Positions 8,004 through 12,478 of a DNA stretch of 64,000 bases are shown piece by piece. Below the pieces are notes generated by a model. It was not told the origin of the DNA and searched no databases. It was given only the letters and a program-made list of their open reading frames with translations. The translations under genes were made by a program, and so were the position numbers. This stretch comes from Escherichia coli (GTDB taxonomy: Bacteria > Pseudomonadota > Gammaproteobacteria > Enterobacterales > Enterobacteriaceae), in the NCBI RefSeq assembly GCF_048403405.1, contig NZ_CP183129.1. One strand, written 5' to 3'. Within the stretch, counting starts at the first letter, position 1. Each line of letters begins with the position of its first letter.

Positions 8004-8733
8004 TTACAATAACCATTCCACAGGCAATATCGACGCCAGTCTGACCATAACCCGCTTCCAGAAACTGGTGGCGGGTTCTTTTTTGAGAACAATCTCTTTC
8101 TTTGCATGACGATCAACCCAGTTGATCCGTCCCCACCTGTCCAGACGGAGCTGCCAGGCCGCATCATACTGGCTCTGAATAAAGCGTTTATCAATTAACT
8201 GTGCCAGCGTTTCGCTCTCTATCACGAAACCCATTTCAGTATTGAGCAATGTTGAACGCGGATCGAAATTGAAAGAGCCGATAAACACCGTTTTACCATC
8301 GATGCTAAAGGTTTTAGCATGCAGGCTGGCACCGGAATTACCGGTTATGCCGCGATCGTGTAACGTACTACTTTGTTCACGCGTCGGCTTGAGTTCATAT
8401 AATTCCACGCCGTAGCGGAGCAATTTTTTGCGCCAGCGTGCGTATCCGGCATGGACGACAGCAACATCGTTAGCGGCAAGAGAATTGGTTAGGATCGCAA
8501 TCTTTACCCCTTTTCTCACCATCCGTAAGAGTTGCGCCACACCTGCGCGTGTCGGTACAAAATAGGCAGAGATAATATCGATGCGTTCACTGGGTGAGCC
8601 CATGATATCGAACAGGCGCTGCGGTAACAGTGAATGCCGTTTTGCCTTGCCCTCCCCTTTCGCCGGATCATCACTTAATAAACGTGTTTTCGCCCAGATA
8701 AGCGGCAACGTTCCATCAACCAGATGATTTATA
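8004..8733 (-). pseudogene. clsC: clsC (ymdC) 3' fragment: C-terminal PLD domain of cardiolipin synthase C, separated from its 5' part by the ISEcp1-bla insertion
   Basis: Contains second HKD motif HAKTFSIDGKTVFIGSFNFD; reading frame continues through 8709-8733 (TLPLIW... preceded by NHLVDGT) up to the ISEcp1 left end. Confidence 0.9.
8729..8733. repeat. Target-site duplication TTATA (left copy)
   Basis: 5 bp immediately left of ISEcp1 IRL; identical 5 bp immediately right of the truncated IS903 end at 11773-11777. Confidence 0.8.
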
Positions 8734-8919
8734 CCTAGATTCTACGTCAGTACTTCAAAAAGCATAATCAAAGCCTTGATAAATATGCATTCCTTCGAAA
8801 TTCAGCTTTCACCCATTGGGTGAAAGAAAAGTGCTCAAAAATATGTTAAATTATCAGCTTTTATGACTCGATATATGGTAAAATAATAGTAAGAAAAGTA
8901 GTAAAAAGGGGTTCTAATT

Positions 8920-10182
8920 ATGATTAATAAAATTGATTTCAAAGCTAAGAATCTAACATCAAATGCAGGTCTTTTTCTGCTCCTTGAGAATGCAAAAAGC
9001 AATGGGATTTTTGATTTTATTGAAAATGACCTCGTATTTGATAATGACTCAACAAATAAAATCAAGATGAATCATATAAAGACCATGCTCTGCGGTCACT
9101 TCATTGGCATTGATAAGTTAGAACGTCTAAAGCTACTTCAAAATGATCCCCTCGTCAACGAGTTTGATATTTCCGTAAAAGAACCTGAAACAGTGTCACG
9201 GTTTCTAGGAAACTTCAACTTCAAGACAACCCAAATGTTTAGAGACATTAATTTTAAAGTCTTTAAAAAACTGCTCACTAAAAGTAAATTGACATCCATT
9301 ACGATTGATATTGATAGTAGTGTAATTAACGTAGAAGGTCATCAAGAAGGTGCGTCAAAAGGATATAATCCTAAGAAACTGGGAAACCGATGCTACAATA
9401 TCCAATTTGCATTTTGCGACGAATTAAAAGCATATGTTACCGGATTTGTAAGAAGTGGCAATACTTACACTGCAAACGGTGCTGCGGAAATGATCAAAGA
9501 AATTGTTGCTAACATCAAATCAGACGATTTAGAAATTTTATTTCGAATGGATAGTGGCTACTTTGATGAAAAAATTATCGAAACGATAGAATCTCTTGGA
9601 TGCAAATATTTAATTAAAGCCAAAAGTTATTCTACACTCACCTCACAAGCAACGAATTCATCAATTGTATTCGTTAAAGGAGAAGAAGGTAGAGAAACTA
9701 CAGAACTGTATACAAAATTAGTTAAATGGGAAAAAGACAGAAGATTTGTCGTATCTCGCGTACTGAAACCAGAAAAAGAAAGAGCACAATTATCACTTTT
9801 AGAAGGTTCCGAATACGACTACTTTTTCTTTGTAACAAATACTACCTTGCTTTCTGAAAAAGTAGTTATATACTATGAAAAGCGTGGTAATGCTGAAAAC
9901 TATATCAAAGAAGCCAAATACGACATGGCGGTGGGTCATCTCTTGCTAAAGTCATTTTGGGCGAATGAAGCCGTGTTTCAAATGATGATGCTTTCATATA
10001 ACCTATTTTTGTTGTTCAAGTTTGATTCCTTGGACTCTTCAGAATACAGACAGCAAATAAAGACCTTTCGTTTGAAGTATGTATTTCTTGCAGCAAAAAT
10101 AATCAAAACCGCAAGATATGTAATCATGAAGTTGTCGGAAAACTATCCGTACAAGGGAGTGTATGAAAAATGTCTGGTATAA
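8920..10182 (+). CDS. tnpA: ISEcp1 transposase, 420 aa
   Basis: 420-aa ORF MINKIDFKAKNLTSNAGLFLLLENAKSNGIFDF... matching recalled ISEcp1 Tnp; AT-rich codon usage unlike flanking chromosome. Confidence 0.92.
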   Translation: MINKIDFKAKNLTSNAGLFLLLENAKSNGIFDFIENDLVFDNDSTNKIKMNHIKTMLCGHFIGIDKLERLKLLQNDPLVNEFDISVKEPETVSRFLGNFNFKTTQMFRDINFKVFKKLLTKSKLTSITIDIDSSVINVEGHQEGASKGYNPKKLGNRCYNIQFAFCDELKAYVTGFVRSGNTYTANGAAEMIKEIVANIKSDDLEILFRMDSGYFDEKIIETIESLGCKYLIKAKSYSTLTSQATNSSIVFVKGEEGRETTELYTKLVKWEKDRRFVVSRVLKPEKERAQLSLLEGSEYDYFFFVTNTTLLSEKVVIYYEKRGNAENYIKEAKYDMAVGHLLLKSFWANEAVFQMMMLSYNLFLLFKFDSLDSSEYRQQIKTFRLKYVFLAAKIIKTARYVIMKLSENYPYKGVYEKCLV

Positions 10183-10285
10183 TAAGAATATCATCAATAA
10201 AATTGAGTGTTGCTCTGTGGATAACTTGCAGAGTTTATTAAGTATCATTGCAGCAAAGATGAAATCAATGATTTATCAAAAATGA

Positions 10286-10315
10286 TTGAAAGGTGGTTGT
10301 AAATAATGTTACAAT
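10286..10315 (+). promoter_or_regulatory. ISEcp1-borne outward promoter driving blaCTX-M (-35 TTGAAA, 18-bp spacer, -10 TACAAT)
   Basis: Hexamers read at 10286-10291 and 10310-10315 just inside the ISEcp1 right end, about 120 bp upstream of bla ATG. Confidence 0.7.
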
Positions 10316-10431
10316 GTGTGAGAAGCAGTCTAAATTCTTCGTGAAATAGTGATTTTTGAAGCTAATAAAAAACACACGTGGAATTTAGGGAATACTGATG
10401 TAACACGGATTGACCGTATTGGGAGTTTGAG

Positions 10432-11307
10432 ATGGTGACAAAGAGAGTGCAACGGATGATGTTCGCGGCGGCGGCGTGCATTCCGCTGCTGCTGGGCAGC
10501 GCGCCGCTTTATGCGCAGACGAGTGCGGTGCAGCAAAAGCTGGCGGCGCTGGAGAAAAGCAGCGGAGGGCGGCTGGGCGTCGCGCTCATCGATACCGCAG
10601 ATAATACGCAGGTGCTTTATCGCGGTGATGAACGCTTTCCAATGTGCAGTACCAGTAAAGTTATGGCGGCCGCGGCGGTGCTTAAGCAGAGTGAAACGCA
10701 AAAGCAGCTGCTTAATCAGCCTGTCGAGATCAAGCCTGCCGATCTGGTTAACTACAATCCGATTGCCGAAAAACACGTCAACGGCACAATGACGCTGGCA
10801 GAACTGAGCGCGGCCGCGTTGCAGTACAGCGACAATACCGCCATGAACAAATTGATTGCCCAGCTCGGTGGCCCGGGAGGCGTGACGGCTTTTGCCCGCG
10901 CGATCGGCGATGAGACGTTTCGTCTGGATCGCACTGAACCTACGCTGAATACCGCCATTCCCGGCGACCCGAGAGACACCACCACGCCGCGGGCGATGGC
11001 GCAGACGTTGCGTCAGCTTACGCTGGGTCATGCGCTGGGCGAAACCCAGCGGGCGCAGTTGGTGACGTGGCTCAAAGGCAATACGACCGGCGCAGCCAGC
11101 ATTCGGGCCGGCTTACCGACGTCGTGGACTGTGGGTGATAAGACCGGCAGCGGCGACTACGGCACCACCAATGATATTGCGGTGATCTGGCCGCAGGGTC
11201 GTGCGCCGCTGGTTCTGGTGACCTATTTTACCCAGCCGCAACAGAACGCAGAGAGCCGCCGCGATGTGCTGGCTTCAGCGGCGAGAATCATCGCCGAAGG
11301 GCTGTAA
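10432..11307 (+). CDS. blaCTX-M-14: Class A extended-spectrum beta-lactamase CTX-M, CTX-M-9 group (sequence consistent with CTX-M-14), 291 aa
   Basis: [32 protein letters not shown]...; motifs STSK, SDN, E166 omega loop, KTG; D240 (GSGDYGTT) and V231 (SWTVGDK) as in CTX-M-14; 42-bp spacer from ISEcp1 IRR typical of this group. Confidence 0.9.
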
Positions 11308-11772
11308 CTGGTTTTGTTGAATAAATCGAACTTTTGCTGAGTTGAAGGATCAGATCACGTATCTTCCCGACAACGCAGACCGTTCCGTGGCAAAGCAAAA
11401 GTTCAAAATCACCAACTGGCCCACCTACAATAAAGCCCTCATCAACCGTGGCTCCATAACTTTCTGGCTGGATGATGAAGCTATTCAGGCCTGGTATGAG
11501 TCAGCAACACCTTCTTCACGAGGCAGACCTCAGCGCTATTCTGACCTTGCCATCACGACTGTGCTGGTCATTAAACGCGTATTCAGGCTGACCCTGCGCG
11601 CTGCGCAGGGCTTTATTGATTCCATTTTTTCTCTGATGAACGTTCCGCTACGCTGCCCGGATTACAGCTGTGTCAGCAGGCGGGCAAAGTCGGTTAATAT
11701 CAGTTTCAAAACGCCCACCCGGGGTGAAATCGCACACCTGGTAATTGATTCCACCGGGCTGAAGGTCTTCGG
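11308..11772 (+). mobile_element. IS903 (IS5 family) 5' fragment, truncated after ~465 bp
   Basis: Starts right after bla stop with IS903-like terminal IR ggttttgttgaataaatcg; encodes transposase N-terminus up to ...LVIDSTGLKVFG, then sequence switches to clsC. Confidence 0.8.
11342..11772 (+). pseudogene. Truncated IS903 transposase (N-terminal ~143 aa of ~307)
   Basis: MKDQITYLPDNADRSVAKQKFKITNWPTYNKALINRGS... matches recalled IS903 Tnp; track ORF 11342..11803 reads through into clsC antisense before stopping. Confidence 0.8.
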
Positions 11773-11777
11773 TTATA
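11773..11777. repeat. Target-site duplication TTATA (right copy)
   Basis: Identical to 8729-8733; deleting 8734-11777 restores an in-frame clsC (…SSPFINHLVDGTLPLIWAKTR…). Confidence 0.8.
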
Positions 11778-12478
11778 AACGGACTGGATTCCATTTTGCG
11801 TAAGTAACGATGCGTCATAGCATCGTTATGCCAGGAGGCGGGTAACTCGATGCGATCCGCCATTTCACCTTCCGGGACATCCAGCACCTGCTGTAGGGGT
11901 GAAACCGATTTGCAATACCAGTAGCGGGCGAAATCATCGGCAACGTCCTCTACAACTGGTCCTATTGCCATGACATCTAAATCCGAAAAAAGTGGCTCTT
12001 CCCCTGCACCAAAATAGGCATCACCAATATTTCGCCCCCCTACCAGCGTCACCACGCCATCGACAGTGAAACTTTTATTGTGCATACGGCGATTGAGACG
12101 GGAAAAGTCGGTGATATAACCAAGCGGACGTAGCAAGCGAAACGAGAAAGGATTAAAAAGCCGGACTTCAATGCGGGGATGACTGTCAAGCAAGCGTAAA
12201 ATGTCGTCAAGTCCGGGTGTATTGTTGTCGTCCAGCAACAAACGGACGCGAACGCCACGCTTTGCTGCGGCTAACAGGGCGGAAAACAGTAATCGACCCG
12301 ACATATCGTCCTGCCAGATGTAATACTGAACATCCAGCGTATGCTCTGCCATTTCGGCCAGACGATACCGGGCGGCAAACGCATCCAGACTTTTCTCCAG
12401 AGGAAAAAGGCCACACTGACCGGGATGTTGCGAACACAGTGGCAGCACCGCGCTCGCCAGCCGGGGCAAATCATTCAT
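11773..12478 (-). pseudogene. clsC: clsC (ymdC) 5' fragment: N-terminal PLD domain of cardiolipin synthase C
   Basis: Contains first HKD motif HNKSFTVDG; native frame ends ...RKMESSPFI then runs 41 codons into IS903-derived sequence before a stop; start position approximate (MNDLPRLAS...). Confidence 0.88.

Follow-up and report, generated by a model that had tools for sequence, protein, structure and literature searches.

ISEcp1 is known to move by means of its left inverted repeat (IRL) and an alternative right end (IRR'), producing a 5-bp duplication of the target, and the published IRR' sequences are weak matches to its true right inverted repeat, or IRR (PMC7864471). Examples are the ISEcp1-blaCTX-M-15 and ISEcp1-blaCMY-2 units, in which one-ended capture pairs IRL with a loosely IRR-like IRR', the target is duplicated over 5 bp and the IS supplies the promoter of the bla gene (PMC7864471; PMC8111917). 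The locus described here belongs to a 64-kb stretch of an Escherichia coli chromosome (the window) and resembles these units in these respects, with a promoter that is putative here, but the cargo and the IRR' are different (ACGTAGGTCCCAGG in the case of CTX-M-15). A 3,039-bp ISEcp1–blaCTX-M-14–ΔIS903 unit (8734–11772) lies inside clsC, with the 5-bp target duplication TTATA on both sides (left copy at 8729–8733, right copy at 11773–11777). We consider it very likely that this unit, in which a spacer of 42 bp separates ISEcp1 from blaCTX-M-14 and only 463 bp of IS903 follow, reached clsC by ISEcp1-mediated transposition.

The left boundary of the insert is the IRL of ISEcp1 (CCTAGATTCTACGT, 8734–8747), immediately after the target sequence. 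The element is complete (1,656 bp, 8734–10389, plus strand) and retains its own IRR (ACGTGGAATTTAGG, 10376–10389), both repeats being as published (PMC7864471). Its transposase gene (8920–10182, plus strand) is intact, coding for 420 aa identical to WP_000608644.1 and matching the IS1380 family profile NF033539 over positions 1–418 of 419 (329.6 bits, cutoff 180). The 42-bp spacer (10390–10431, plus strand) runs from IRR to the start codon of blaCTX-M-14 (10432–11307, plus strand), whose intact 291-aa product is identical to WP_001617865.1 (CTX-M-14 according to PGAP) and scored 620.7 bits against NF033089 (cutoff 570). What follows is a remnant of an IS903B/D-like element (11310–11772, plus strand), of which only the left inverted repeat, GGTTTTGTTGAATAAATC as in PMC7864471, and the first 463 bp are present. 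The truncated IS903 transposase reading frame (11342–11803) extends into clsC and covers positions 1–122 of the 289 in profile NF033579; beyond the equivalent of 11772, IS903 in other genomes goes on with ...CGGTGAAGGCGAG.

The right end of the unit, IRR' (CTGAAGGTCTTCGG, 11759–11772, plus strand), has also been found, identical, at other loci. It matches the IRR of ISEcp1 at 6 of 14 positions, with a terminal GG common to both, and the nearby background is equally good (among 1,080 positions scanned against IRR, 84 scored 6 and 35 scored at least 7), so that likeness to IRR does not tell where the right end lies. The ISEcp1 transposase would have paired its own IRL with this weakly similar sequence internal to IS903, bypassing its IRR and duplicating the TTATA target upon insertion. 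Use of a right end located within IS903 instead of IRR would explain why the bla gene downstream of ISEcp1 moved along.

The interrupted gene is on the minus strand and is now found in two pieces, with the break after Ile252 (numbering of the 493-aa PGAP protein). Its stop codon is at 8004–8006, and there are three candidate starts: the one given by PGAP (12529), the ATG at 12478 used in the earlier note, and the TTG at 12469, presumably the K-12-type start (473 aa in the K-12 annotation). The 5' fragment (11774–12529, minus strand) contains residues 1–252 by the PGAP start, including the first HKD motif (HNKSFTVD, residues 150–157), while the 3' fragment (8004–8733, minus strand) contains residues 252/253–493 (residues 252–493 by tblastn, at 100%) and the second motif (HAKTFSID, residues 389–396). 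Both HKD (HxKxxxxD) motifs are present in the reconstructed gene, but here they are in separate ORFs 3 kb apart and no single polypeptide has the two. The two PLDc_2 domains detected with Pfam (59–204 and 293–436) are likewise distributed one per fragment, which confirms the claim of the earlier note that clsC was cut between its HKD motifs. The 3' fragment has lost the native start, and its longest ORF begins at a TTG (8708) and codes for 234 aa.

On the other side, the 5' fragment is open into the insert and forms a hybrid ORF (11648–12529, minus strand, with the stop codon at 11648–11650) of 252 ClsC residues, 41 codons of antisense IS903 and a stop. Native sequence up to ...SSPFI followed by 41 codons read from antisense IS903 had already been recognized at this junction, and the ORF (TEDLQPGG...VIRAA after the junction) bears this out. 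However, the length of ca. 255 residues proposed then was wrong by about 20–40, the actual values being 276 aa (ATG 12478), 293 aa (PGAP start) or 273 aa (K-12 TTG). Exact-sequence look-ups of the hybrid protein with four plausible starts (276, 293, 296 and 292 aa) retrieved no record. When a 79-aa peptide spanning the junction was searched for homologues, it gave 47 matches, none of them a ClsC-IS903 hybrid; they corresponded to the IS903-antisense tail only, which was either part of spurious ORFs within the element or joined to other host genes (P0001, P0005, P0008 and P0009), or to the ClsC part only (P0019).

The empty site could be reconstructed cleanly. Deletion of 8734–11777 (the unit plus one TTATA) gave 1,657 identical positions out of 1,657 to the intact loci of six complete genomes annotated as mdoC-clsC-ymdB, and the restored protein is identical to WP_072265111.1 (“cardiolipin synthase ClsC”), which together with the identical synteny establishes the orthology. 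The nearest complete relatives (4621, MS 69-1, TUM1226, TUM14771, GN02461 and OX030728) all have an intact clsC; with strain 4621, the whole window is colinear, the differences being two SNPs and the insertion. No further clsC copy was found within the window; one may exist elsewhere in the genome, although the number of clsC places per complete E. coli genome has a median of 1 and a maximum of 2. Across 5,426 complete E. coli genomes, the unit was never found in clsC, and a search with the full locus found no place covering at least 80% of the query. Among the papers searched, none dealt with clsC together with ISEcp1 and CTX-M-14, or with ymdC together with ISEcp1. The clsC::ISEcp1-blaCTX-M-14 junctions are a specific marker to track this sub-lineage.

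The earlier note described the insertion as IS903, and IS903-derived sequence does directly abut the 5' fragment of clsC. One could thus think that IS903 itself interrupted the gene and that ISEcp1-blaCTX-M-14 arrived separately or is irrelevant. We give this almost no credence. Only 463 of the 3,039 bp are IS903, the rest being ISEcp1 and blaCTX-M-14, which the note did not mention. The remnant is limited to the left part, its transposase breaks off near position 122 of the 289 in the profile, and the insert has no right inverted repeat of IS903; the locus contains no complete IS903, which would have an 18-bp inverted repeat at each end and an entire transposase, and the opposite boundary of the insert is the IRL of ISEcp1. 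IS903 itself duplicates 9 bp of its target, whereas the duplication found here has 5 bp, one copy bordering the IRL of ISEcp1 and the other an internal position of IS903. Besides, the block from ISEcp1 to IS903 is found moved as one unit at other sites. What is left of IS903 is an inert passenger of 463 bp with only one of its ends. An assembly artefact, in which an ISEcp1-blaCTX-M-14 contig from a plasmid was wrongly joined to the chromosome at the repeats, appears very improbable as well. Multicopy repeats such as ISEcp1 and IS903 often break or misjoin short-read assemblies, and the insertion is absent from every other genome or protein record searched, but a misjoin would not yield a perfect 5-bp target duplication at both ends of the unit. 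Moreover, the limits of the unit are exactly the IRL and a right end that recurs at other loci, and the sequence on either side of it is perfectly colinear with that of a sister genome. An ISEcp1-mediated transposition thus appears to be the process behind the insertion.

As for the enzyme, the sequence strongly suggests that ClsC is inactivated because each fragment retains one HKD domain. What would remain of ClsC is the N-terminal HKD1 domain, followed by 41 nonsense residues, and a C-terminal HKD2 domain without a promoter. The function could survive if the two halves were produced and came together again as an active two-HKD enzyme, or if the N-terminal half worked as a single-HKD homodimer. 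The break falls between the PLDc_2 domains and leaves a whole one in each half, the 3' half has its TTG-initiated ORF, and PLD-family proteins with a single HKD that work as dimers are known. Even so, survival of the function is highly unlikely, given that the 3' half is without a promoter of its own, is placed downstream of 3 kb of ISEcp1 and bla in antisense, and has a TTG preceded only by a weak GGA, while the N-terminal half bears the nonsense tail; to our knowledge, there is no precedent of split or single-HKD function for ClsC. Inactivation is therefore the reading that we keep. The HKD motifs are crucial and together form one active site (PMC4966929; PMC12846801), and since this single site is split, the synthesis of cardiolipin from PE and PG is predicted to be lost. 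The genes for ClsA and ClsB lie outside the window. The contribution of ClsC to cardiolipin is small and restricted to late-log or stationary phase (PMC8027125), so a mild phenotype is to be expected, in line with the subtle one anticipated in the earlier note. The strain is predicted to be a natural clsC-null with ymdB intact, and a strong phenotype is not expected.

The upstream genes were left untouched. ymdB (12471–13004, minus strand), which overlaps the start of clsC, was considered intact from the beginning and indeed covers 177 of the 177 positions of profile NF001660 (373.6 bits); its length and position match those of the annotated ymdB (WP_000857402.1) in a sister genome, where the locus is 100% identical. 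ymdA (13099–13410) is intact too. At the 3' end of ISEcp1, an outward promoter-like site (10286–10315, plus strand) with a -35 TTGAAA, 18 nt and a TG-extended -10 TACAAT faces blaCTX-M-14, and we take it to be the published ISEcp1 promoter; it has 10 of 12 consensus matches, in a scan that gave 8 sites overall versus 8.5 in shuffled sequence. blaCTX-M-14 would be expressed from the chromosomal site, and its position behind this putative promoter would provide stable, plasmid-independent resistance to extended-spectrum cephalosporins. The gene is inherited without a plasmid, so the cephalosporin resistance of the clone should persist without selection, and since ISEcp1 is intact, the unit is able to move again.

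The ymdB-clsC and bla transcripts would now converge, and transcriptional interference between ymdB-clsC' and bla may follow. An Rfam scan of 7900–13500 found nothing. A GC-rich hairpin in ΔIS903 (11592–11610; -15.7 kcal/mol, z = -1.8), the best of the terminator-like hairpins downstream of bla though not clearly better than shuffles, might stop read-through from bla, so that the effects of convergent transcription are uncertain. A stronger version, in which a stationary-phase-induced ymdB-clsC' transcript runs head-on against an ISEcp1-driven blaCTX-M-14, making the ESBL growth-phase dependent by antisense RNA or polymerase collision, and bla read-through silences ymdB (RNase III modulator and biofilm regulator), is speculative and seems to us unlikely. 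If true, the head-on transcripts would represent a coupling of resistance and physiology peculiar to this insertion allele. In any case, the cargo of the insertion, blaCTX-M-14 with its putative promoter, matters far more than the loss of ClsC. What counts most is that an ESBL gene has become fixed in the chromosome. The predicted loss of a minor lipid enzyme is a by-product, and the relevance of the insertion is mainly epidemiological.

Regarding clsC, the nearest known counterparts are E. coli K-12 strains with an engineered deletion of this gene, also called ymdC (Tan et al. 2012, as reported in PMC8027125 and PMC4966929). As described there, they share with this strain the loss of the PE+PG cardiolipin synthase (predicted here), the conservation of ymdB and a mild lipid phenotype limited to stationary phase, which is also what we expect. 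Unlike them, this is a natural insertion allele, with two domain-sized fragments, a hybrid ORF and a resistance gene, predicted to be strongly transcribed, convergent to ymdB-clsC'.

With respect to the unit, at least 521 plasmid records cover 80% or more of its full length. Two chromosomal copies, E41-1 (next to yadL) and KUN2017-0933 (in a carbohydrate porin gene), have the same 3,039-bp span, IRL and right end ...GGTCTTCGG, and each has its own AT-rich 5-bp duplication (TATAA and GATTA, respectively), as here. The right end also adjoins other host ORFs in the tail fusions P0001, P0005, P0008 and P0009. The BLAST match of the KUN2017-0933 unit ran on for 15 bases past the unit end, as if a trace of clsC had been carried along, but these bases belong to its target and resemble clsC by chance. 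The chromosomal unit of E17 has no duplication, unlike the one described here, and this points to a rearrangement. The annotations of these three strains carry the same transposase and CTX-M-14 protein accessions as ours, and their target genes are others than clsC. Longer ISEcp1-blaCTX-M-14-ΔIS903B(-ΔlamB) units, with the same ISEcp1, spacer, bla and left part of IS903, are found in Z0117EC0032 (fepA), NR301 (prophage) and AVS0947 (pgrR). Identity was checked base for base against Z0117EC0032 only, where none of the 3,039 bp differed; the other units were compared by BLAST and are 99.8–99.9% identical. The right ends of these longer units lie at least about 24 bp deeper in IS903, or past IS903 into a captured piece of lamB, and are therefore different alternative right ends. 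Nothing at this locus is at odds with current knowledge of ISEcp1, CTX-M or cardiolipin synthases: compared with all these units, the site of the insertion in clsC is new and the mechanism is known.

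The clsC gene (minus strand) is split by an inserted unit of 3,039 bp (8734-11772), flanked by two copies of TTATA, the left one (8729-8733) abutting IRL and the right one (11773-11777) abutting 11772. The left part of the unit is ISEcp1 (1,656 bp), complete from the first base of its IRL (CCTAGATTCTACGT) at 8734 to the last base of its IRR (ACGTGGAATTTAGG) at 10389. It codes on the plus strand for an IS1380-family transposase of 420 aa (8920-10182; NF033539, 329.6 bits, cutoff 180), identical in sequence to WP_000608644.1. A promoter-like site (10286-10315; -35 TTGAAA and TG-extended -10 TACAAT) is oriented toward the beta-lactamase gene, whose ATG is directly preceded by a 42-bp spacer. 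This CTX-M family enzyme (291 aa, 10432-11307, plus strand; NF033089, 620.7 bits, cutoff 570) is identical to WP_001617865.1 and labeled CTX-M-14 by PGAP. The remainder is ΔIS903 (11310-11772), recognizable by the IS903 left repeat GGTTTTGTTGAATAAATC at 11310 (PMC7864471) and by a profile match, from 11342 on the plus strand, to the N-terminal part of an IS5-family (IS903) transposase, of which 122 of 289 profile positions are covered. On the plus strand, the first ca. 144 residues of this transposase are joined to nine antisense clsC codons in an ORF (11342-11803, 153 aa) that mirrors the ClsC-IS903 hybrid described below and is almost certainly nonfunctional. The earlier note on this DNA missed the main content of the insertion, i.e., a chromosomally fixed, ISEcp1-mobilized blaCTX-M-14.

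When the unit and one TTATA were removed in silico, the remaining 1,657 bases aligned over their full length, with 100% identity, to the complete chromosomes of six E. coli strains, at a locus annotated there as mdoC/clsC/ymdB. The restored ORF, 493 aa long when read from the PGAP start, had the same sequence as WP_072265111.1 ("cardiolipin synthase ClsC"). The genome of the sister strain 4621 (NZ_CP103479.1; blood, Houston) is colinear with the whole 64-kb window, with 100% identity over 1-8733 and 52483-64000 and two SNPs over 11773-53044. The unit is the sole structural difference between the two, which implies that the insertion is a recent event in the clone. The SNPs are A/G at 34393, in the efeU-putP intergenic region, and T/G at 44963, within rutE. 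The complete genomes of MS 69-1, TUM1226, TUM14771, GN02461, and OX030728 have about 100% identity to the window over 25 kb. A YccE-family gene (ca. 50234-51494, minus strand) is annotated as frameshifted in strain 4621 and, since the window is identical over that stretch, is a pseudogene here too.

The break in ClsC is located directly after Ile252 (493-aa numbering), in an inter-domain segment to judge from the Pfam limits of the PLDc_2 domains (59-204 and 293-436). As the earlier note had claimed, the two HKD motifs, HNKSFTVD (residues 150-157) and HAKTFSID (389-396), now lie on separate ORFs, the 5' fragment continues into 41 antisense IS903 codons (TEDLQPGG...VIRAA), and ymdB upstream is intact; so is ymdA. 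The hybrid ORF (minus strand) extends from 12538 to a stop at 11648-11650, with possible starts at 12529, 12478, and 12469, and its length had been underestimated at ca. 255 residues: it is 276 aa from the same ATG (12478) and 273 to 293 aa across starts, the extremes corresponding to the K-12-type TTG and the PGAP start. The TTG start and the 273-aa figure follow the K-12 ClsC annotation of 473 aa. The 3' fragment (TTG at 8708 to a stop at 8004-8006, minus strand) has no promoter of its own. Both ORFs gave weak matches to cardiolipin-synthase and PLD models, as expected since each is half a protein. No second clsC-like sequence was found within the 64-kb window, and the locus was detected as one place in 5,420 of 5,426 genomes, a count of places and not of intact genes since a locus with a small IS insertion still scores as one; clsC is normally single copy. 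Among the matches to the 79-aa ClsC-IS903 junction peptide, a 136-aa ClsC fragment ending in ...TRAGVAQL followed by YGW (P0019; 12 members, one 4.6-Mb contig) indicates that clsC has been disrupted in a different way, and independently, in other genomes. The ClsC N terminus (12410-12478, minus strand; (MNDL)PRLASAVLPLCSQ), which contains a charged residue and a Cys along with a brief hydrophobic run, appears loosely similar to a lipoprotein signal or lipobox. This is intriguing, as the ClsC-related ClsO of A. baumannii is an outer-membrane lipoprotein, but E. coli ClsC has been treated in the same paper as devoid of TM domains (PMC12846801).

A single active site is made up of both HKD motifs, neither of which is dispensable (PMC4966929; PMC12846801), and the earlier note's proposal that ClsC is inactive in this strain is reasonable. 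ClsC uses PE and PG to produce cardiolipin, with a minor contribution in late-log or stationary phase only, and requires ymdB coexpression for full activity (PMC8027125; PMC4966929). Since ClsA and ClsB are presumably encoded elsewhere in the genome, only a subtle lipid phenotype is expected, in agreement with the earlier note. A polar effect would not be expected, since the clsC strand is empty downstream, mdoC being convergent. Transcription of bla (plus) and of ymdB-clsC' (minus) would also converge. At 11592-11610, ΔIS903 contains a GC-rich hairpin (-15.7 kcal/mol, z = -1.8), which might halt bla read-through but need not. With blaCTX-M-14 on the chromosome behind the putative outward promoter of ISEcp1, a stable ESBL phenotype is to be expected.

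The same 3,039-bp unit, with an identical right end, was found inside a porin gene of KUN2017-0933 (flanks GATTA) and next to yadL in E41-1 (flanks TATAA). In E17 (NZ_CM143886.1, 2500-5560), it lies between bcsC-related and citX fragments with no duplication, and the unequal 5-bp flanks (TTATA versus TTTTA) suggest a unit-mediated deletion or inversion rather than a simple insertion. The protein collection also contains the unit tail fused at the same junction to other host ORFs (P0001, P0005, P0008, and P0009). Judging by these sequences, the unit has moved as a discrete entity on earlier occasions. It was covered to 80% or more in at least 521 plasmid records, and plasmids are thus its likely source. 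Variant units in other genomes have a right end further into IS903 or a captured piece of lamB. In Z0117EC0032 and NR301 (about 4540-5640), a longer unit with ca. 24 extra IS903B bases followed by ca. 1 kb of lamB sits in fepA and within a prophage; the captured piece bears witness to a previous stop in lamB and subsequent read-through mobilization. Within clsC, the unit was present in none of the 5,426 complete genomes, the ClsC-IS903 hybrid was not found in the protein and gene collections, and no paper among the literature searched linked ISEcp1 with clsC or ymdC. Since clsC is also intact in all six nearest genomes, it appears to be a new insertion site for a known kind of unit, whose mechanism, cargo, and exact 3,039-bp extent are known or recurrent. 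The insertion would not surprise a specialist; it is of use as a marker in epidemiology and, presumably, as a natural null allele of clsC.

As for the agent, the earlier note had labeled the insertion as IS903. This can be ruled out, as the unit is bounded by the IRL of ISEcp1, only the first 463 bp of IS903 are there, and the duplication is 5 bp and not the 9 bp typical of IS903. The boundaries at IRL and inside IS903, the AT-rich 5-bp duplication, and the co-mobilized downstream gene are instead the signature of one-ended ISEcp1 transposition, in which ISEcp1 would mobilize blaCTX-M-14 by using its own IRL and an alternative right end (IRR') inside IS903. IRR' (CTGAAGGTCTTCGG) is identical to the ISEcp1 IRR at 6 of 14 positions, terminal GG included, which is not above background; such weak resemblance is usual for alternative ends. 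Target pentamers of independent ISEcp1 insertions are closely alike and AT rich, which fits a marked preference for T/A-rich, TATA-like targets. To the left of IRL, we found TTATA in the window, Z0117EC0032, and E17, TATAA and TAATA in two other loci with ISEcp1 units (L005 and L007, respectively), and TCATA in NR301. Transposition via an IRR' has been reported for ISEcp1-blaCTX-M-15 and ISEcp1-blaCMY-2, with the same boundary and duplication signature as the unit in clsC (PMC7864471).
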